A stretch of DNA of 64,000 nt from Escherichia coli (GTDB lineage: Bacteria; Pseudomonadota; Gammaproteobacteria; Enterobacterales; Enterobacteriaceae): the NCBI RefSeq assembly GCF_013122565.1, contig NZ_CP053258.1; one strand, 5' to 3'. The position numbers and the translations under genes were made by a program. The first letter of the stretch is position 1. Every line of letters begins with the position of its first letter. This document shows positions 11,748 through 43,841 of this stretch, piece by piece. The notes beneath the pieces are model-generated. The model made no database searches, was not told where the DNA came from, and saw nothing but the letters and a program-made list of their open reading frames with translations.

Positions 11748-12440
11748 TCAGGTCACCCGTTTTGCCCGACTTGCCTTCGTCCATTCTGGATTTGCACAGC
11801 GCGGACATAATTGTTTTTCCCCCGCGTTCATATGAATGATTTCACTACAACGAATGCAGGCATAGTCCGCCGACTCCGGCACCACTTTGTAACGCTGCGT
11901 ACAATCACTGGGTAAAATAAGTAAACCCGGTTTCACCTTGTCATCTTCAAAGAAATAGACACTGATTTGCCCGTTGGTTTCGAGAATTGCCAGACGTACT
12001 TGCCCCAACTGCTCTACACCACGCAATCGTAGCTCCATAAAGAACTCAAATTCCGTCATGTTGGAGTTATTGAGTTTCGACCAGGCCAGCTCGCCATCTT
12101 CAATAATAACAACCGGCTTGCCTTCCAGAAGATCTTCCAGTTTTTCACTGTGCGCCATCAACCACATTACCAGGCGGTATAACAACGCCAGAGTCATAAA
12201 GACGATAAGTACCGGCACCATCGGCACATCATCATAAAACGCCACATCTCCCGCCGCTGAACCCAGCGTCAGAATGATTAACACTTCAAAAAGCGACATC
12301 TGCCGCACTCCGCGTCGTCCGGTCATTTTGAGGAACAAAAAGACCAGTACAAAGGTATAAAGACTACGTAGTGCAACTTCGCCAAGGAAATCAAAAGGCA
12401 CTTTATCAAATGCCATACGGTGGAGATCGAACGCCTTCAT
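11748..12440 (-). CDS. ycaP: Inner membrane protein, DUF421 family
   Basis: 230 aa ORF with N-terminal transmembrane helices; position and length match E. coli YcaP by recall. Confidence 0.8.
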   Translation of the reverse strand: MKAFDLHRMAFDKVPFDFLGEVALRSLYTFVLVFLFLKMTGRRGVRQMSLFEVLIILTLGSAAGDVAFYDDVPMVPVLIVFMTLALLYRLVMWLMAHSEKLEDLLEGKPVVIIEDGELAWSKLNNSNMTEFEFFMELRLRGVEQLGQVRLAILETNGQISVYFFEDDKVKPGLLILPSDCTQRYKVVPESADYACIRCSEIIHMNAGEKQLCPRCANPEWTKASRAKRVT

Positions 12441-12569
12441 TTTTATGCTCTTATCGTGGTTTATCCGCTAAAAGCATAGTCAACAGTTCATCGGCATGGC
12501 GGCGGTGATAGCGCCTTTGAGATAAAACCCGTATTATTGCGCGCTTTCCGTACGACTAAAGTGATTTTC

Positions 12570-14330
12570 ATGACGCAAACATTTATCCCCGGCAAAGATG
12601 CCGCTCTGGAAGATTCCATCGCTCGCTTCCAGCAAAAACTTTCAGACCTCGGCTTTCAGATTGAAGAGGCCTCCTGGCTGAATCCCGTGCCTAACGTCTG
12701 GTCTGTACATATTCGCGACAAAGAGTGCGCACTGTGTTTTACCAACGGTAAAGGCGCAACCAAAAAAGCAGCGCTGGCTTCTGCACTCGGTGAATATTTC
12801 GAGCGTCTCTCAACCAACTACTTTTTTGCTGATTTCTGGCTGGGCGAAACCATCGCCAACGGCCCGTTCGTACATTACCCCAACGAAAAATGGTTCCCTC
12901 TGACAGAAAATGACGATGTGCCAGAAGGGCTGCTCGATGACCGTCTGCGTGCTTTTTACGATCCGGAAAATGAACTGACCGGCAGCATGCTAATTGACCT
13001 GCAATCCGGTAACGAAGATCGTGGTATTTGCGGTCTGCCGTTTACACGCCAGTCTGATAATCAAACCGTTTATATTCCGATGAATATCATTGGTAACCTG
13101 TACGTTTCTAACGGTATGTCCGCTGGCAATACCCGCAACGAAGCGCGCGTTCAGGGATTATCTGAAGTTTTCGAACGCTACGTGAAAAACCGCATTATTG
13201 CTGAAAGCATCAGCCTGCCAGAGATCCCGGCAGAGGTGCTTGCGCGTTATCCAGCGGTGGTTGAAGCGATCGAAACACTGGAAGCGGAAGGTTTCCCGAT
13301 CTTCGCTTATGATGCCTCGCTTGGCGGTCAATATCCGGTGATCTGCGTGGTACTGTTCAATCCAGCTAATGGTACCTGCTTTGCATCCTTCGGTGCACAT
13401 CCTGATTTTGGCGTTGCACTGGAACGTACCGTGACCGAGTTGCTGCAAGGACGCGGTCTAAAAGATTTGGATGTGTTTACTCCGCCAACCTTCGATGATG
13501 ATGAAGTCGCTGAACATACTAACCTCGAAACGCACTTTATCGATTCCAGCGGTTTAATCTCCTGGGACCTGTTCAAGCAGGATGCCGATTATCCGTTTGT
13601 GGACTGGAGCTTCTCCGGCACCACGGAAGAAGAGTTTGCTACGCTGATGGCTATCTTCAACAAAGAAGATAAAGAAGTTTATATTGCCGATTACGAGCAT
13701 CTGGGCGTTTATGCTTGCCGCATTATCGTGCCTGGCATGTCCGATATTTATCCGGCAGAAGATCTGTGGCTGGCGAATAACAGCATGGGCAGCCATTTAC
13801 GTGAAACGATTCTTTCGCTCCCAGGCAGCGAGTGGGAAAAAGAAGATTACCTGAACCTTATCGAGCAACTGGATGAAGAAGGTTTTGATGACTTTACCCG
13901 CGTGCGTGAGCTATTGGGTCTGGCGACCGGGTCGGATAACGGTTGGTACACCCTGCGTATCGGTGAATTAAAAGCCATGCTGGCGCTGGCTGGTGGCGAT
14001 CTGGAACAGGCTCTGGTCTGGACCGAATGGACGATGGAGTTTAACTCATCAGTATTTAGTCCGGAACGCGCCAACTATTATCGCTGCCTGCAAACGTTGT
14101 TATTACTGGCGCAGGAAGAAGATCGCCAGCCGCTGCAATATTTGAATGCGTTTGTTCGCATGTACGGCGCAGATGCCGTGGAAGCCGCCAGTGCGGCAAT
14201 GAGCGGCGAAGCGGCGTTTTATGGCTTGCAACCAGTAGATAGCGATCTGCACGCGTTTGCTGCACATCAGTCGTTGTTGAAAGCCTACGAAAAGCTGCAG
14301 CGCGCCAAAGCAGCATTCTGGGCAAAATAA
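12570..14330 (+). CDS. ycaO: YcaO-domain protein (ribosomal protein S12 methylthiotransferase accessory factor)
   Basis: ORF track 12537..14330; ATG at 12570 (MTQTFIPGK...) gives 586 aa; stand-alone YcaO with no adjacent partner gene. Confidence 0.85.
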   Translation: MTQTFIPGKDAALEDSIARFQQKLSDLGFQIEEASWLNPVPNVWSVHIRDKECALCFTNGKGATKKAALASALGEYFERLSTNYFFADFWLGETIANGPFVHYPNEKWFPLTENDDVPEGLLDDRLRAFYDPENELTGSMLIDLQSGNEDRGICGLPFTRQSDNQTVYIPMNIIGNLYVSNGMSAGNTRNEARVQGLSEVFERYVKNRIIAESISLPEIPAEVLARYPAVVEAIETLEAEGFPIFAYDASLGGQYPVICVVLFNPANGTCFASFGAHPDFGVALERTVTELLQGRGLKDLDVFTPPTFDDDEVAEHTNLETHFIDSSGLISWDLFKQDADYPFVDWSFSGTTEEEFATLMAIFNKEDKEVYIADYEHLGVYACRIIVPGMSDIYPAEDLWLANNSMGSHLRETILSLPGSEWEKEDYLNLIEQLDEEGFDDFTRVRELLGLATGSDNGWYTLRIGELKAMLALAGGDLEQALVWTEWTMEFNSSVFSPERANYYRCLQTLLLLAQEEDRQPLQYLNAFVRMYGADAVEAASAAMSGEAAFYGLQPVDSDLHAFAAHQSLLKAYEKLQRAKAAFWAK

Positions 14331-14661
14331 AATCAAATAGCCTACGCAATGTAGGCTTAATGATTCGTCTGAGTTATATTATGGGGCATTTTTTTAATGC
14401 CCCGCTTTACATATATTTGCATTAATAAAATAATTGTAATTATAAAGTTAAATATCGGTAATTTGTATTTAATAAATACGATCGATATTGTTACTTTATT
14501 TGCCTGATGCTCCCTTTTAATTAACTGTTTTAGCGGAGGATGCAGAAAAAATTCAACTCATTTGTTAATTTTTAAAATTTATTTTTATTTGGATAATCAA
14601 ACATTTACTCCGTATTTGCATAAAAACCATGCGAGTTACGGGCCTATAAGCCAGGCGAGAT

Positions 14662-14676
14662 ATGATCTATATCAAT
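14662..14676 (+). promoter_or_regulatory. Candidate FNR site in the focA-pflB control region
   Basis: aTGATctatATCAAt is one mismatch from the FNR consensus TTGAT-N4-ATCAA, inside the AT-rich 400 bp upstream of focA; TATAAT lies about 10 bp downstream. Exact promoter assignment not resolved. Confidence 0.45.
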
Positions 14677-14735
14677 TTCTCATCTATAATGCTTTGTTAG
14701 TATCTCGTCGCCGACTTAATAAAGAGAGAGTTAGT

Positions 14736-15593
14736 GTGAAAGCTGACAACCCTTTTGATCTTTTACTTCCTGCTGCAATGGCCAAAGTGGCCGAAGAGGC
14801 GGGTGTCTATAAAGCAACGAAACATCCGCTTAAGACTTTCTATCTGGCGATTACTGCCGGTGTTTTCATCTCAATCGCATTCGTCTTCTATATCACAGCA
14901 ACCACTGGCACAGGCACAATGCCCTTCGGCATGGCAAAACTGGTTGGCGGCATTTGCTTCTCTCTGGGGCTGATTCTTTGTGTTGTCTGCGGAGCCGATC
15001 TCTTTACTTCCACAGTGTTGATTGTTGTTGCTAAGGCGAGTGGGCGCATCACCTGGGGTCAGTTGGCGAAAAACTGGCTAAATGTCTATTTCGGCAACCT
15101 GGTCGGCGCACTGCTGTTTGTACTTTTAATGTGGCTTTCCGGCGAGTATATGACCGCAAATGGTCAATGGGGACTAAACGTCCTACAAACCGCCGACCAC
15201 AAAGTGCACCATACTTTTATTGAGGCCGTCTGCCTTGGTATCCTGGCAAACCTGATGGTATGTCTGGCAGTATGGATGAGTTATTCTGGCCGTAGCCTGA
15301 TGGACAAAGCGTTCATTATGGTGCTGCCGGTCGCGATGTTTGTTGCCAGCGGTTTTGAGCACAGTATCGCAAACATGTTTATGATCCCGATGGGTATTGT
15401 AATCCGCGACTTCGCATCTCCGGAATTCTGGGCCGCTGTCGGTTCTGCACCGGAAAATTTTTCTCACCTGACCGTGATGAACTTCATCACTGATAACCTG
15501 ATTCCGGTTACGATCGGTAATATTATCGGCGGTGGTTTGTTGGTTGGGTTGACATACTGGGTCATTTATCTGCGTGAAAACGATCACCATTAA
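14736..15593 (+). CDS. focA: Formate channel
   Basis: GTG start at 14736 (VKADNPFDLLLPAAMAKV...), 285 aa, in frame with ORF track 14562..15593; FNT-family membrane protein directly upstream of pflB. Confidence 0.9.
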   Translation: MKADNPFDLLLPAAMAKVAEEAGVYKATKHPLKTFYLAITAGVFISIAFVFYITATTGTGTMPFGMAKLVGGICFSLGLILCVVCGADLFTSTVLIVVAKASGRITWGQLAKNWLNVYFGNLVGALLFVLLMWLSGEYMTANGQWGLNVLQTADHKVHHTFIEAVCLGILANLMVCLAVWMSYSGRSLMDKAFIMVLPVAMFVASGFEHSIANMFMIPMGIVIRDFASPEFWAAVGSAPENFSHLTVMNFITDNLIPVTIGNIIGGGLLVGLTYWVIYLRENDHH

Positions 15594-18906: not shown

Positions 18907-18943
18907 TCCGCGCTTCATTCTGCTACAGCGTTTTTAACACATT

Positions 18944-19534
18944 TTATAGTGCATCTACCATATCCCGTACCTGAGATAATAACGACTGATAATAGCTCGC
19001 ATGAAGTTCTTGCCCATCGAATACCACTGTATTACACAAGAAAGTGACATCGGCATCTTCAATACCAAGATAACTGCACATATTTATCAAATAATCGCTT
19101 ATATTTTTTTCCCAGCCCATCTGGACAAATGATTCTTTGTCTCCTCCAACCAGCGCCACCCAACGAACTTTATTGAATGGTAATTTGTGCCCATCTCCAT
19201 AAGCCAGCCCATTATTCCATACTCTGTCAATATATCCTTTTAGCATTGCCGGGAAGCTGTACCACCAGAGAGGAAAAACCACCACTAACGTGTCATGTTC
19301 AAGCAGCTCTGAATAAAGCTGATGAACCTCTGGAGAATAACGTTTATCCATATTCTTCCAGTCTGGTTCATCTTCTGGCGTCATCACCGGGTTGAAATTA
19401 CGCCGATATAAATCGAGTTCCGTCACCTGTATTTTCCGCTCCATTGCCCGCTGATGGATCGCATCAGCAATATGTGCGGTCAATGAATCATGACGAGGAT
19501 GGGCCCATACCAAATAAATACGTTCAGACTGCAT
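18944..19534 (-). CDS. ycaK: Flavodoxin-like NAD(P)H dehydrogenase (quinone) family protein
   Basis: 196 aa ORF MQSERIYLVWAHPRHDSLTAH...; KefF/MdaB-like fold by recall. Confidence 0.8.
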   Translation of the reverse strand: MQSERIYLVWAHPRHDSLTAHIADAIHQRAMERKIQVTELDLYRRNFNPVMTPEDEPDWKNMDKRYSPEVHQLYSELLEHDTLVVVFPLWWYSFPAMLKGYIDRVWNNGLAYGDGHKLPFNKVRWVALVGGDKESFVQMGWEKNISDYLINMCSYLGIEDADVTFLCNTVVFDGQELHASYYQSLLSQVRDMVDAL

Positions 19535-19633
19535 AATTTTACCTCCACGTTAAGTTCTGGAGCGCACTTTACGCAGGCGGCATAATCATGTAAACGTGAT
19601 GATTCAGGATGAGTTAATGAAGGATTTTCACTA

Positions 19634-20542
19634 ATGCGGATGAATATGTCTGACTTTGCCACTTTCTTTGCTGTGGCCCGTAATCAAAGCTTTCGTGCAG
19701 CGGGCGATGAGTTAGGCTTATCCTCGTCCGCCATTAGCCATAGTATTAAAACACTGGAACAACGTCTTAAAATTCGCTTATTCAATCGGACAACCCGAAG
19801 CGTATCGTTAACGGAAGCGGGTTCTAATCTCTATGAACGATTGCGCCCAGCTTTCGACGAAATTCAGATCATGTTAGATGAAATGAATGATTTTCGTCTG
19901 ACACCGACAGGAACGCTCAAAATCAATGCCGCCCGGATAGCTGCACGTATATTTTTAATGCCTTTACTGGTTGGTTTCACACGTGAATATCCTGATATTA
20001 AAGTCGAGCTCACAACTGACGACTCTCTTATCGATATCGTCCAGCAGGGCTTTGACGCTGGCGTTCGACTTAGTGGCATCGTCGAAAAAGATATGATCAG
20101 CGTGGCGATCGGCCCGCCAGTGAAATTATGTGTAGCAGCAACGCCAGAGTACTTTACAAGATATGGCAAACCCCGCCATCCTCATGATCTGCTTAATCAT
20201 CAATGTGTTGTTTTTCGTTATCCCAGCGGTAAACCTTTCCACTGGCAATTTGCAAAGGATCTGGAAATTGCTGTCGCAGGGAATATCATTCTGGATGATG
20301 TTGATGCTGAACTGGATGCCGTTTTGATGGGGGCTGGTATCGGGTATCTGCTCTATGAACAGATCAAGGAGTACCTTGATACCGGTCGTTTAGAATGTGT
20401 ACTGGAAGACTGGATCACAGAGCGTCCAGGCTTCCAGGTCTATTACCCAAACCGCCAGTATATGTCCTGCGGCTTGCGCGCATTTCTCGATTATGTAAAA
20501 ACGGGCCAGATCTGCCAGAGTCAGCGTCACCGACCACAATAA
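19634..20542 (+). CDS. ycaN: LysR-family transcriptional regulator
   Basis: 302 aa ORF; N-terminal LysR HTH region (FATFFAVARNQSFRAAGDELGLSSSAISHSIKTLE...); divergent from ycaK. Confidence 0.8.
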   Translation: MRMNMSDFATFFAVARNQSFRAAGDELGLSSSAISHSIKTLEQRLKIRLFNRTTRSVSLTEAGSNLYERLRPAFDEIQIMLDEMNDFRLTPTGTLKINAARIAARIFLMPLLVGFTREYPDIKVELTTDDSLIDIVQQGFDAGVRLSGIVEKDMISVAIGPPVKLCVAATPEYFTRYGKPRHPHDLLNHQCVVFRYPSGKPFHWQFAKDLEIAVAGNIILDDVDAELDAVLMGAGIGYLLYEQIKEYLDTGRLECVLEDWITERPGFQVYYPNRQYMSCGLRAFLDYVKTGQICQSQRHRPQ

Positions 20543-28245: not shown

Positions 28246-28415
28246 AATGGCTCACTCAAGCTTGCTCACGATTGATTCCAGTAACAAACCGTATTGTGTA
28301 ATTATTTCTATAGCAGTTCGCTATATAGGCTTGTATACATCGAATGATTTGAAAATCAAAGAGATAGGTAGATTTTCACTCGAAAGTAGTATTACGTGTA
28401 AGTGAGGAGTAATTA

Positions 28416-28429
28416 TTGTTCGGTATCAA
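28416..28429 (-). promoter_or_regulatory. FNR binding site of the dmsABC promoter
   Basis: Minus strand reads TTGATaccgAACAA, which I recall as the FNR half-consensus site described for dmsA; it lies about 170-185 bp upstream of the dmsA start. Confidence 0.6.
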
Positions 28430-28435
28430 AGGGAG

Positions 28436-28463
28436 ACAAAAAAAGCGCCCGCAGGCGCTTTTT
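28436..28463 (-). terminator. Terminator downstream of serS
   Basis: A-tract, hairpin agcgcccGCAgggcgct, then T-tract about 20 nt 3' of the serS stop; looks bidirectional. Confidence 0.6.
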
Positions 28464-28483
28464 AGATTCAGAAAAATTGGGTA

Positions 28484-43384: not shown

Positions 43385-43472
43385 GGTGAGGTGTCCGAGT
43401 GGCTGAAGGAGCACGCCTGGAAAGTGTGTATACGGCAACGTATCGGGGGTTCGAATCCCCCCCTCACCGCCA
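43385..43472 (+). tRNA. serW: tRNA-Ser (anticodon GGA)
   Basis: 88-nt sequence GGTGAGGTGTCCGAGTGGCTGAAGGAGCACGCCTGGAAAGTGTGTATACGGCAACGTATCGGGGGTTCGAATCCCCCCCTCACCGCCA: long variable arm, GGA anticodon, encoded CCA end. Confidence 0.95.
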
Positions 43473-43483
43473 TATTTAAAGAA

Positions 43484-43512
43484 GAGCTCGTACGAAAGTA
43501 CGAGCTTTTTTT
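43484..43512 (+). terminator. Rho-independent terminator of serW
   Basis: gagctcgtacGAAAgtacgagc followed by TTTTTTT immediately after the tRNA. Confidence 0.8.
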
Positions 43513-43630
43513 CGCATAATGCACTCCAGGGGGGTGAGAAGCCCCGACCGGGGTTCGACAACTGGCGCAGCCAGTTGGACAGACCACGAACGCAGTGAGT
43601 GGGCTGCCCGCAGGGCGAGCGAAGCGAGTC

Positions 43631-43695
43631 AATCCCCCCCTCACCGCCATATTTAAAGAAGAACTCGTACGAAAGTACGGGCTTTTTTTTCGCAT
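43631..43695 (+). repeat. Direct duplicate of the tRNA-Ser 3' end plus terminator (copy 2)
   Basis: aatcccccctcaccgccatatttaaagaagaActcgtacgaaagtacgGgcttttttttcgcat repeats positions about 43455-43518 with 2-3 substitutions. Confidence 0.8.
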
Positions 43696-43841
43696 TTTAT
43701 CTGCCTGTACGGCAGTGAATATGGTGGGCGGGTGGAGTATGTTACCAGTGAATTTCTAAGCTGCCAGTACGGCAGTGAACGTTCGCTGCAACCGCTAGCC
43801 AAGACGGTAGGTTTTTCTAAGCTGCCTGTACGGCAGTGAAC
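43693..43841 (-). CRISPR. Orphan type I-F CRISPR mini-array (3 repeats, 2 spacers), no adjacent cas genes
   Basis: 28-bp repeats at 43693-43720 (degenerate), 43753-43780 and 43814-43841; plus strand reads TTTCTAAGCTGCC(T/A)GTACGGCAGTGAAC, the reverse complement of the E. coli I-F repeat GTTCACTGCCGTACAGGCAGCTTAGAAA. Spacers are 32 and 33 bp. AT-rich putative leader at 43842-44054. Confidence 0.8.

Follow-up and report, generated by a model that had tools for sequence, protein, structure and literature searches.

The question raised by this locus is whether its ycaO gene belongs to a cryptic RiPP cluster or encodes a stand-alone enzyme that acts on a protein. YcaO domains are a hallmark of azoline-forming RiPP pathways, and a gene of this kind could mark a thiopeptide or azoline cluster whose precursor is small, unannotated or encoded elsewhere. 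EcYcaO, on the other side, has been reported as an ATP-dependent enzyme that thioamidates Met82 of ribosomal protein uL16, a conclusion drawn from a deletion strain and from reconstituting the reaction in vitro (Rice et al. 2026, PMC13063428). We have examined the gene and its surroundings in a 64-kb stretch of E. coli DNA, referred to here as the window, and the features discussed are collected in Table 1. We conclude with high confidence that the window ycaO encodes the EcYcaO orthologue of Escherichia, a stand-alone modifier of a protein and not of a RiPP peptide. The gene is already known and belongs to the Escherichia core; the structure of its product dates from 2014 and the identification of the substrate from 2026, and the window adds nothing new on the YcaO enzyme itself.

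Table 1. Features at and around ycaO, in window coordinates.
Feature	Position	Strand	Details
ycaP (DUF421/YetF membrane protein)	11748..12440	-	Divergent neighbour; Pfam DUF421 and YetF_N
Near-invariant element just upstream of the ycaO start	12505..12566	+	About 60 bp; cross-species conservation
ycaO CDS	12570..14330	+	586 aa plus TAA stop; intact ORF; ATG at 12570, TAA at 14328-14330
YcaO catalytic (ATP/Mg2+-binding) domain	12744..13742	+	aa 59-391; Pfam PF02624, E = 3.5e-76
YcaO_C, C-terminal TPR-like domain	13788..14312	+	aa 407-581; Pfam PF18381, E = 2.5e-65, 220 bits
ycaO-focA spacer	14331..14735	+	AT-rich, GC 34%; focA-pfl promoters; no precursor gene
GC-rich hairpin AGCCTAC-GCAAT-GTAGGCT	14339..14357		Read from sequence; 9 nt past the ycaO stop
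focA (formate channel)	14736..15593	+	Downstream neighbour; NCBIfam NF008069, 632 bits

The ycaO gene and its product

The start and stop of ycaO match the RefSeq annotation in E. coli. A longer form beginning at a TTG at 12537, with 11 extra N-terminal residues, was considered but discarded; in 13 of 45 loci the added stretch is interrupted or lies out of frame, in Pantoea and Erwinia its length varies, conservation over it spans all three codon positions and runs on upstream of the TTG, and both RefSeq and the crystal structure begin with MTQTF.

The predicted protein is a member of the YcaO superfamily, scoring 573 bits with TIGR00702 (cut-off 75.65), and it matches the whole PF02624 profile (positions 1–325) at 257 bits (cut-off 25.7). 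The score with the NCBIfam equivalog NF040716 is 917.4 bits (cut-off 700), and a homologue search returned only close relatives, all containing both YcaO and YcaO_C. The latter is described as a dimerisation domain and possible uL16-binding domain, and a TPR domain of 150 residues has been described for EcYcaO (PMC13063428). E. coli K-12 YcaO (UniProt P75838) is likewise 586 residues long, with the same two domains and the same context, serC-ycaP-ycaO-focA-pflB. The window protein is identical at 582 of 586 residues to the E. coli YcaO of PDB entries 4Q84, 4Q85 and 4Q86, and differs from 4Q84 only at D222E, G249A, E311D and N347S, all of which are conservative. Residues E75, E78, E199, E202 and R203 are all found in the window protein, and E75, E78 and E199 (EcYcaO numbering) are reportedly among the acidic positions that bind ATP/Mg2+ (Dunbar et al. 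2014). E202 is an ATP-site residue that was mutated in PMC13063428, and each of the 12 interface residues tested in the same study (L55, F57, R79, D88, R295, T317, E320, D325, L329, R444, R463 and F491) is unchanged. The pI of the window protein is 4.38, reflecting 92 Asp plus Glu versus 42 Lys plus Arg; EcYcaO has a published pI of 4.4, which is unusually low and complementary to the basic uL16 (PMC13063428).

Of 5426 complete E. coli genomes, 5425 contain ycaO, and in 80 Enterobacterales species it sits at the corresponding position on the chromosome. Comparison with seven other loci (two E. coli-labelled records, Citrobacter, Salmonella, Klebsiella, Enterobacter and Siccibacter) gives dN/dS values of 0.009–0.043, indicating very strong purifying selection, in keeping with an enzyme whose substrate is static and essential. 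The central 600 bp of the gene (12950–13550) is a rare allele whose DNA is 90–95% identical to that of 5421 of the 5426 E. coli records; almost all of the differences are synonymous.

Search for RiPP partners and a precursor

The azoline-forming cyclodehydratases (TOMM SagD/BalhD/McbD, cyanobactin LynD/PatD) share with the window YcaO the ATP-binding fold and amide O-phosphorylation, but they use a Cys, Ser or Thr side chain as nucleophile, whereas for the window YcaO this would be external sulfide. These systems have an adjacent precursor, a fused or adjacent E1-like/ThiF or RRE partner and an FMN-dependent azoline dehydrogenase of the nitroreductase fold, none of which was found with the window ycaO. 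Pfam scans of all the large ORFs between 0.8 and 28 kb identified no ThiF/E1-like, PqqD-type RRE, nitroreductase-fold dehydrogenase, TfuA, lanthipeptide or C39-peptidase domains, and within 12 kb on either side of ycaO there is no E1-like/ThiF protein, RRE, SagB/McbC-type dehydrogenase, protease or dedicated exporter. With the TOMM/SagD model TIGR03604 the window YcaO scores 46.5 bits, far short of the cut-off of 219.25. The sole flavoprotein encoded between 0.8 and 28 kb is YcaK, with a Flavodoxin_2 fold, 4.6 kb from ycaO. It was rejected as an azoline dehydrogenase, since it is of the wrong fold family, lies on the opposite strand and is dispensable; strain KE55 keeps ycaO but has no counterpart of the YcaK-bearing segment (window 18919–20429).

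Small ORFs were surveyed from 11.5 to 15.0 kb, where 73 are listed (12–110 aa). All of those with at least 30% Cys/Ser/Thr sit within ycaP or ycaO, in another frame or antisense, and none of them has a Shine-Dalgarno-like motif; among all 73 there is no candidate that combines such a motif with Cys/Ser/Thr enrichment and an intergenic site. Comparison across 71–80 species revealed no conserved coding small ORF on either flank of ycaO. Those at 14357–14422 (-), 14360–14425 (+), 14397–14507 (+) and 14565–14630 (-), and at 12371–12508 (+), 12488–12619 (-) and 12534–12635 (-), are not kept open across species and were rejected as precursors. Five ORFs lie between ycaO and focA, and four of these are intact in E. 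coli only (one of 71 species). The fifth, a 12-codon ORF at 14662–14700 whose last residue is Cys, is intact in 60 of 71 species, which counts in favour of a hidden precursor, but it has no coding signature: variable sites are distributed 8:7:9 over the codon positions, 45 of 57 differing site-states are non-synonymous, and there are in-frame stops in about 10 loci. The positions in it that never vary correspond to the FNR half-sites TGAT/ATCA and to the -10 TATAAT of the focA promoter, and a pattern match places an FNR-like box, ATGATctatATCAA, at 14662–14675, followed by TATAAT.

Support for a RiPP cluster has also come from E. coli C91, in which antiSMASH calls a 'thiopeptide BGC' and deletion of ycaO lowers siderophore output by 61%; however, these data are termed correlative by their own authors, BAGEL4 finds nothing, and the antiSMASH similarity is 14%, and to an O-antigen cluster (PMC12837419). 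The neighbours of the gene are moreover conserved core genes, and loss of either leaves ycaO in place. We regard the presence of a RiPP cluster here as extremely improbable. The 'thiopeptide' flag raised at ycaO by genome-mining tools is a false positive, and this is directly supported at the sequence level because the cross-species tests gave neither a precursor nor a partner. A preliminary description of this DNA had presented ycaO as a stand-alone gene without a nearby precursor, partner protein or dehydrogenase, and not as a cryptic natural-product cluster; both the Pfam scans and the small-ORF survey bear this out. The observation it named as capable of overturning that view, a conserved Cys/Ser/Thr-rich small ORF beside ycaO, was sought in 71–80 species with a negative outcome.

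Ribosomal proteins as substrates

The thioamide of uL16 was seen independently in 2020 by cryo-EM and mass spectrometry, with YcaO named as the prime candidate (PMC7550191), and the assignment of uL16 as the substrate is that of one 2026 paper from one laboratory together with this earlier structural observation. In the 2026 study the backbone thioamide at Met82 is abolished by deletion of ycaO, which alone gives no growth phenotype, and purified EcYcaO thioamidates uL16 in a reaction that requires ATP, Mg2+, sulfide (as Na2S, which is non-physiological) and a folded uL16, to which it binds with a Kd of 9.8 nM; orthologues from Klebsiella and Pseudomonas were also validated, and a proteome-wide AlphaFold3 screen gave uL16, uL29 and YcaO itself as the only confident partners (PMC13063428). 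As described in the literature for E. coli K-12, YcaO is an acidic homodimer, with a pI of about 4.4, that docks onto folded, basic uL16 over an extensive surface of complementary charge, an AlphaFold3 model places the uL16 loop bearing Met82 in the ATP/Mg2+ active site, and the Met82 backbone carbonyl oxygen is swapped for sulfur. This follows the general YcaO mechanism of the literature, in which the amide is attacked by a nucleophile and O-phosphorylated by ATP, and phosphate is then lost. The thioamide adjoins the peptidyl-transferase centre, next to the beta-hydroxy-Arg81 made by RoxA (E. coli K-12, literature), and a modification in this position makes YcaO of real biological interest.

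The window YcaO would be expected to thioamidate uL16 Met82 as EcYcaO does, because it shows four conservative differences only and keeps every ATP-site and interface residue examined. It has the features of the uL16-modifying clade, namely an NF040716 score above the cut-off, a low pI and a YcaO_C domain, with no RRE, partner, TfuA or small precursor ORF nearby. A further mark of the clade would be a uL16 in the same genome with the loop Arg81-Met82-Gly83 and with the thioamide on it, a modification that only high-resolution mass spectrometry or cryo-EM can reveal. The genes rplP (encoding uL16), roxA and rimO are all outside the window, and with its substrate gene, rplP, elsewhere on the chromosome YcaO would not depend on a precursor, partner or dehydrogenase encoded next to it.

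The preliminary description had assigned YcaO a housekeeping role in helping the modification of ribosomal protein S12. The housekeeping, ribosome-linked part of this stands, and the role in S12 modification is out of date in view of the uL16 Met82 thioamidase activity (PMC13063428). It follows the database name, 'S12 methylthiotransferase accessory factor', which is still used by NCBIfam NF040716 and RefSeq and is probably misleading for ycaO. Judged from secondary accounts of Strader 2011, it is unlikely that YcaO is chiefly a chaperone-like accessory of the radical-SAM protein RimO in the beta-methylthiolation of S12 Asp88. Besides the name, this reading draws on co-purification of YcaO with S12, on reduced methylthiolation in a ycaO deletion and on overlapping transcriptional phenotypes of rimO and ycaO deletions (2011 review, PMC3347575), but the reduction was only from 99% to 84% (summarised in PMC13063428), whereas deletion of rimO removes the S12 mark completely and RimO can modify an S12 peptide in vitro by itself (PMC13063428). 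The AlphaFold3 interface scores are low, with no confident complex predicted, at 0.31 for YcaO with uS12 and 0.16 for YcaO with RimO, compared to 0.8–0.87 for uL16 (PMC13063428), and an ATP-using, amide-activating site has no obvious job in radical-SAM methylthiolation. YcaO may still have a secondary or indirect effect on S12 methylthiolation.

Two groups of relatives bear on thioamidation of uL16 by the window YcaO. The methanogen YcaO that acts with TfuA (McrA Gly465; TIGR03266; PDB 6PE3/6PEU, MJ1094) likewise uses ATP to put sulfur in place of a backbone oxygen in a folded protein, but it is distant, and the window YcaO scores 40.2 bits with TIGR03266 (cut-off 365) and matches 6PE3 with E = 7e-4. 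Neither TfuA nor a ThiS-like sulfur carrier was found near the window ycaO, which on both score and context falls outside the TfuA-associated family, and E. coli has no TfuA homologue (PMC13063428). The methanogen enzyme also takes short peptides, whereas EcYcaO needs folded uL16, and it has no counterpart of the extra C-terminal TPR-like domain. Much closer are the OsmC-YcaO fusions (TIGR03549), represented by the 729-residue P0123, whose YcaO and YcaO_C parts are 54% identical to the window protein over its full length and which is also acidic (pI 4.7). These fusions carry an N-terminal OsmC-like domain of about 147 residues that Pfam does not find in the window YcaO, which aligns to profile positions 148–722 only and scores 683.8 bits with TIGR03549 against a cut-off of 900. 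The OsmC-like thiol domain of P0123 has three cysteines, at positions 50, 59 and 112, and neither RiPP genes nor obvious sulfur-relay genes are seen around the P0123 gene. If the fusion in this closest sister group is read as a clue to function, a free-standing OsmC-family cysteine protein of E. coli might serve uL16 thioamidation in vivo as its sulfur or redox partner; we consider this quite unlikely.

Neighbouring genes and flanking DNA

The immediate neighbours of ycaO are ycaP and focA, as had been noted from the sequence at the outset and as is confirmed by the ORFs, the Pfam and NCBIfam matches and the RefSeq annotation, and pflB and pflA come after focA in the window. These neighbours are context and not partners of ycaO; of the 80 orthologous loci with ycaO, about 35 lack ycaP. 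The adjacency to focA-pflB-pflA could be taken as a sign that YcaO is functionally tied to anaerobic formate metabolism, perhaps by way of sulfide availability or by modifying a glycyl-radical enzyme, much as YcaO acts on methyl-coenzyme M reductase. The order ycaO then focA-pflB-pflA is indeed found in 71 of the loci examined, with the spacer held at about 405 bp, and the same synteny extends across Gammaproteobacteria (PMC7550191); however, serC-aroA upstream is equally conserved, and the adjacency therefore has the look of chromosomal backbone, not of an operon. In five loci (L046, L047, L063, L066 and L074) ycaO is kept with no focA-pfl downstream, the focA promoters lie within the spacer itself, focA-pfl transcription is independent of ycaO and the thioamide occurs in aerobically grown cells (PMC7550191), and PflB and PflA are not among the confident AlphaFold3 partners of YcaO (PMC13063428). 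Such a link to formate metabolism is thus very improbable.

Within the spacer a promoter scan identifies a sigma-70 site, TTTACA-17-AATAAT, at 14406–14434, with the same hexamers as those given for focA-pflB in PMC3946193. The hairpin close to the ycaO stop is terminator-like on the minus strand in a scan that counts no more such sites in the region than in shuffled sequence, and it is a possible, if weak, candidate for a transcription terminator or boundary.

As a side observation, we note the near-invariant, promoter-like element of about 60 bp upstream of ycaO. It contains a conserved GATAGCG block (12507–12513) and a -10-like TATTAT (12532–12537) followed by the GC-rich TGCGCGC (12538–12544), and it is conserved in Enterobacterales loci both with and without ycaP. 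The element is at least 99% identical in 4861 of the 5426 E. coli records, whereas the adjoining coding DNA reaches 97% at best. A role as the repeated operator of a regulon was rejected, as BLAST finds a single copy per E. coli genome. A structured 5' leader RNA found no support, with a folding energy of -12.8 kcal/mol (z = +0.55) that is equalled by 140 of 200 shuffles; an Rfam search of the ycaO region gave no matches. Judging by its sequence and conservation, the element is probably the ycaO promoter, and ycaO appears to be transcribed from it as a single gene, independently of focA-pfl.

Identity and conservation of the ycaO gene

The ycaO gene is a single unbroken ORF of 586 codons followed by TAA (12570-14330, + strand), whose product matches the whole Pfam YcaO profile at residues 59-391 (E = 3.5e-76), YcaO_C at residues 407-581 (E = 2.5e-65), and the NCBIfam equivalog NF040716 (917 bits; cut-off 700). 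It is identical at 582 of 586 positions to the protein in the E. coli YcaO crystal structures (PDB 4Q84/4Q85/4Q86), the substitutions relative to the 4Q84 protein being D222E, G249A, E311D and N347S, and its start and stop are those of E. coli ycaO in RefSeq. Around ycaO the window ORFs and their Pfam families agree with the standard E. coli gene order annotated in strain KE55 (...rpsA-cmk-ycaL-aroA-serC-ycaP / ycaO-focA-pflB-pflA-...-ycaM-ycaD-ycaC-dmsCBA), and the 3-kb ycaO region is present in 5425 of 5426 complete E. coli genomes. The coordinates, gene call and neighbours (ycaP and focA) in the preliminary description are therefore correct, and the feature is real, correctly placed and already known.

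The central 600 bp of the gene (12950-13550) are a rare allele: of 5426 E. coli records, 5421 are 90-95% identical to it and just five reach 96-97%; most 500-bp windows around it show 97-100% identity. The differences are nearly all synonymous, with three amino-acid changes; the segment was probably acquired by recombination from a divergent lineage of Escherichia, and looks to be without functional consequence. The window as a whole is E. coli-like, yet has no very close complete RefSeq E. coli genome; identity to KE55 is 98.4% over 1-18.9 kb, and that to the best of 5426 genomes is 98.6% over 28-52 kb. With an identity of only 94.3%, the GTDB entry that bears the name E. coli SCPM-O-B-8794 probably belongs to another Escherichia lineage.

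A single scan of species-representative genomes yielded 80 orthologous ycaO loci, ranging from Escherichia to Serratia, Erwinia and Lonsdalea, among which the order serC-(ycaP)-ycaO-focA-pflB-pflA is widely retained. Because ycaP is absent from about 35 of these, and five complete loci have common backbone genes (serS and rarA, for example) downstream of ycaO in place of focA-pfl, neither is an obligatory ycaO partner. The dN/dS of ycaO is 0.009-0.043 against seven other loci (two E. coli-labelled records, Citrobacter, Salmonella, Klebsiella, Enterobacter and Siccibacter), which fits the argument of PMC13063428 that a static, essential substrate keeps the enzyme unchanging.

Search for RiPP partners and precursors

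A Pfam scan of every large ORF in 0.8-28 kb of the window revealed no ThiF/E1-like, PqqD-type RRE, nitroreductase-fold (SagB/McbC), TfuA, lanthipeptide or C39-peptidase domain. The sole flavoprotein in this region, YcaK, has a Flavodoxin_2 fold; its gene lies on the opposite strand, 4.6 kb from ycaO. We note that ycaK (a flavodoxin-like NAD(P)H oxidoreductase) and ycaN (a LysR regulator) occupy 18919-20429, just past pflA, and that both are also present in strain 40EC; KE55 keeps ycaO and has no counterpart of this segment, with a short LysR pseudogene remnant in place of the two genes, and the segment is therefore a strain-variable indel.

Among 73 small ORFs of 12-110 codons listed from 11.5-15.0 kb, those with at least 30% Cys/Ser/Thr are all contained in ycaP or ycaO, either antisense or in a different frame, and lack a Shine-Dalgarno-like motif. 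Of 71 other loci, only the E. coli one keeps the four longer ORFs of the ycaO-focA spacer intact, and ORFs around the ycaP-ycaO spacer likewise show no upkeep across species. With domain scans, small-ORF listing and cross-species tests all negative, the absence of RiPP partners, first described by eye, is confirmed.

A conserved small ORF with a Cys/Ser/Thr-rich core beside ycaO had been named beforehand as the finding that would speak against this, and a 12-codon ORF in the ycaO-focA spacer was examined because it formally corresponds to that case; it is the sole such candidate and shows no coding signature. Its variable sites fall 8:7:9 at codon positions 1:2:3, 45 of 57 differing site-states are non-synonymous, and about ten loci carry in-frame stops, on which grounds it was rejected as a gene. 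It lacks a Shine-Dalgarno motif, and Cys/Ser/Thr make up just 3 of the 12 residues. The bases that never vary are those of the FNR-box half-sites and of a TATAAT hexamer, and conservation continues equally strongly past its stop into the focA leader. The ORF is therefore focA promoter sequence that is open by accident. The same spacer contains a sigma-70 site with hexamers identical to those listed as a constitutive RpoD promoter of focA-pflB (PMC3946193).

Predicted function of the window YcaO

In a proteome-wide AlphaFold3 screen of 4,403 proteins (Rice et al., March 2026), the only confident YcaO partners were uL16, uL29 and YcaO itself, and the model put the uL16 Met82 loop in the YcaO ATP site (PMC13063428). 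The thioamide is missing from ribosomes of a ycaO deletion strain. In vitro, purified YcaO acts on folded uL16 of full length and requires ATP, MgCl2 and Na2S for the thioamidation, leaving 11- and 21-residue peptides unmodified; binding is tight (Kd = 9.8 nM) over a large electrostatic surface, and the Klebsiella and Pseudomonas orthologues have the same activity (PMC13063428). The window protein contains the YcaO_C/TPR domain, 12 of 12 probed interface residues are unchanged, as is ATP-site E202, and neighbourhood scans found no RRE, TfuA or nearby small ORF. Also unchanged are E75, E78 and E199, which we take to be ATP/Mg2+-binding positions of E. coli YcaO. The pI is 4.38, compared to a published value of 4.4, and all sequence-level features set out in PMC13063428 are present. 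On the strength of this agreement we consider the window YcaO very probably the uL16 Met82 backbone thioamidase; the substrate gene rplP lies outside the window.

The preliminary description had YcaO helping ribosomal protein S12 modification, because it drew on the S12/RimO story, which was described in a 2011 review (PMC3347575) and is still the database name ('S12 methylthiotransferase accessory factor' in NCBIfam NF040716 and RefSeq). This is the sole point of substance to be corrected, the function being replaced by uL16 Met82 backbone thioamidation (PMC13063428). That YcaO is mainly an S12-methylthiolation accessory factor is improbable, as the change in S12 modification is only from 99% to 84%, RimO alone is sufficient in vitro, and the YcaO-uS12 and YcaO-RimO models are not confident (PMC13063428). 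A functional link of ycaO to formate metabolism is very unlikely given the five loci in which focA-pfl is missing, and it is less credible still that ycaO marks a cryptic RiPP cluster, a reading whose sole trace in the literature is a 'thiopeptide' call by antiSMASH, accompanied by correlative phenotypes (PMC12837419); against it stand the lack of any partner domain in 0.8-28 kb and of a conserved coding small ORF beside ycaO, bearing out the earlier view that this is not a cryptic natural-product cluster. Both the S12 label and the 'thiopeptide' label of antiSMASH-type tools conflict with the 2026 experimental assignment.

Thioamidation of uL16 resembles that of McrA by methanogen YcaO proteins in that oxygen is exchanged for sulfur on a folded protein in an ATP-dependent manner. 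The window YcaO falls outside the methanogen McrA family (TIGR03266, score 40, cut-off 365; no TfuA) and the azoline-forming TOMM family (TIGR03604, score 46.5, cut-off 219). Closest to it among distinct relatives are the OsmC-YcaO fusions (TIGR03549, score 684, cut-off 900, with the alignment starting only at profile position 148), whose N-terminal OsmC-like domain has three cysteines; the wider family is for the most part acidic. One such fusion (P0123, 729 aa, locus L083 6001-8190) is 54% identical to the window YcaO, with Pfam OsmC, YcaO and YcaO_C domains and no RiPP genes in its gene context. The fusion is a possible clue to a sulfur or redox partner of uL16 thioamidation.

Regulatory and other elements

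Positions of regulatory and RNA features in the window
Feature	Position	Strand	Remarks
Near-invariant ~60-bp element	12505-12566	+	directly upstream of ycaO ATG
Sigma-70 site TTTACA-17-AATAAT	14406-14434		ycaO-focA spacer; promoter scan
12-codon ORF MIYINFSSIMLC	14662-14700	+	intact in 60/71 loci
FNR-like box aTGAT-ctat-ATCAA	14662-14675		within 12-codon ORF, focA promoter; pattern match
STnc130 sRNA (enterobacterial)	28336-28470	+	serS-dmsA spacer; full-length Rfam match, 139 bits
tRNA-Ser(GGA)	43385-43472
59-nt direct repeat	43454-43512, 43631-43689		duplicate of tRNA-Ser(GGA) 3' end and downstream hairpin
Mini-array, three 28-nt repeats	43693-43720, 43753-43780, 43814-43841		two match Rfam CRISPR-DR4

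The single-copy element upstream of ycaO is almost invariant across Enterobacterales, whether ycaP is present or not, with at least 99% identity in 4861 of 5426 E. coli records, compared to 97% at best for the adjoining coding DNA. RNA folding gave no structure signal in it. A -10-like TATTAT/TATCAT in it precedes a GC-rich TGCGCGC, and at the -35 position it has a conserved GATAGCG block that does not look like TTGACA. Judged by the general features of bacterial promoters, the element is probably the promoter of ycaO, of an unusual kind, or an operator, and may combine a stringent-type GC-rich discriminator with an unusual -35 or activator site.

Elsewhere, no cas genes are evident near the tRNA-Ser(GGA) gene and mini-array (43385-43841), and the array resembles the orphan remnant of a type I-F CRISPR that lies between infA and clpA in E. 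coli. The STnc130 match overlaps an FNR-like box (28416-28429) upstream of dmsA.
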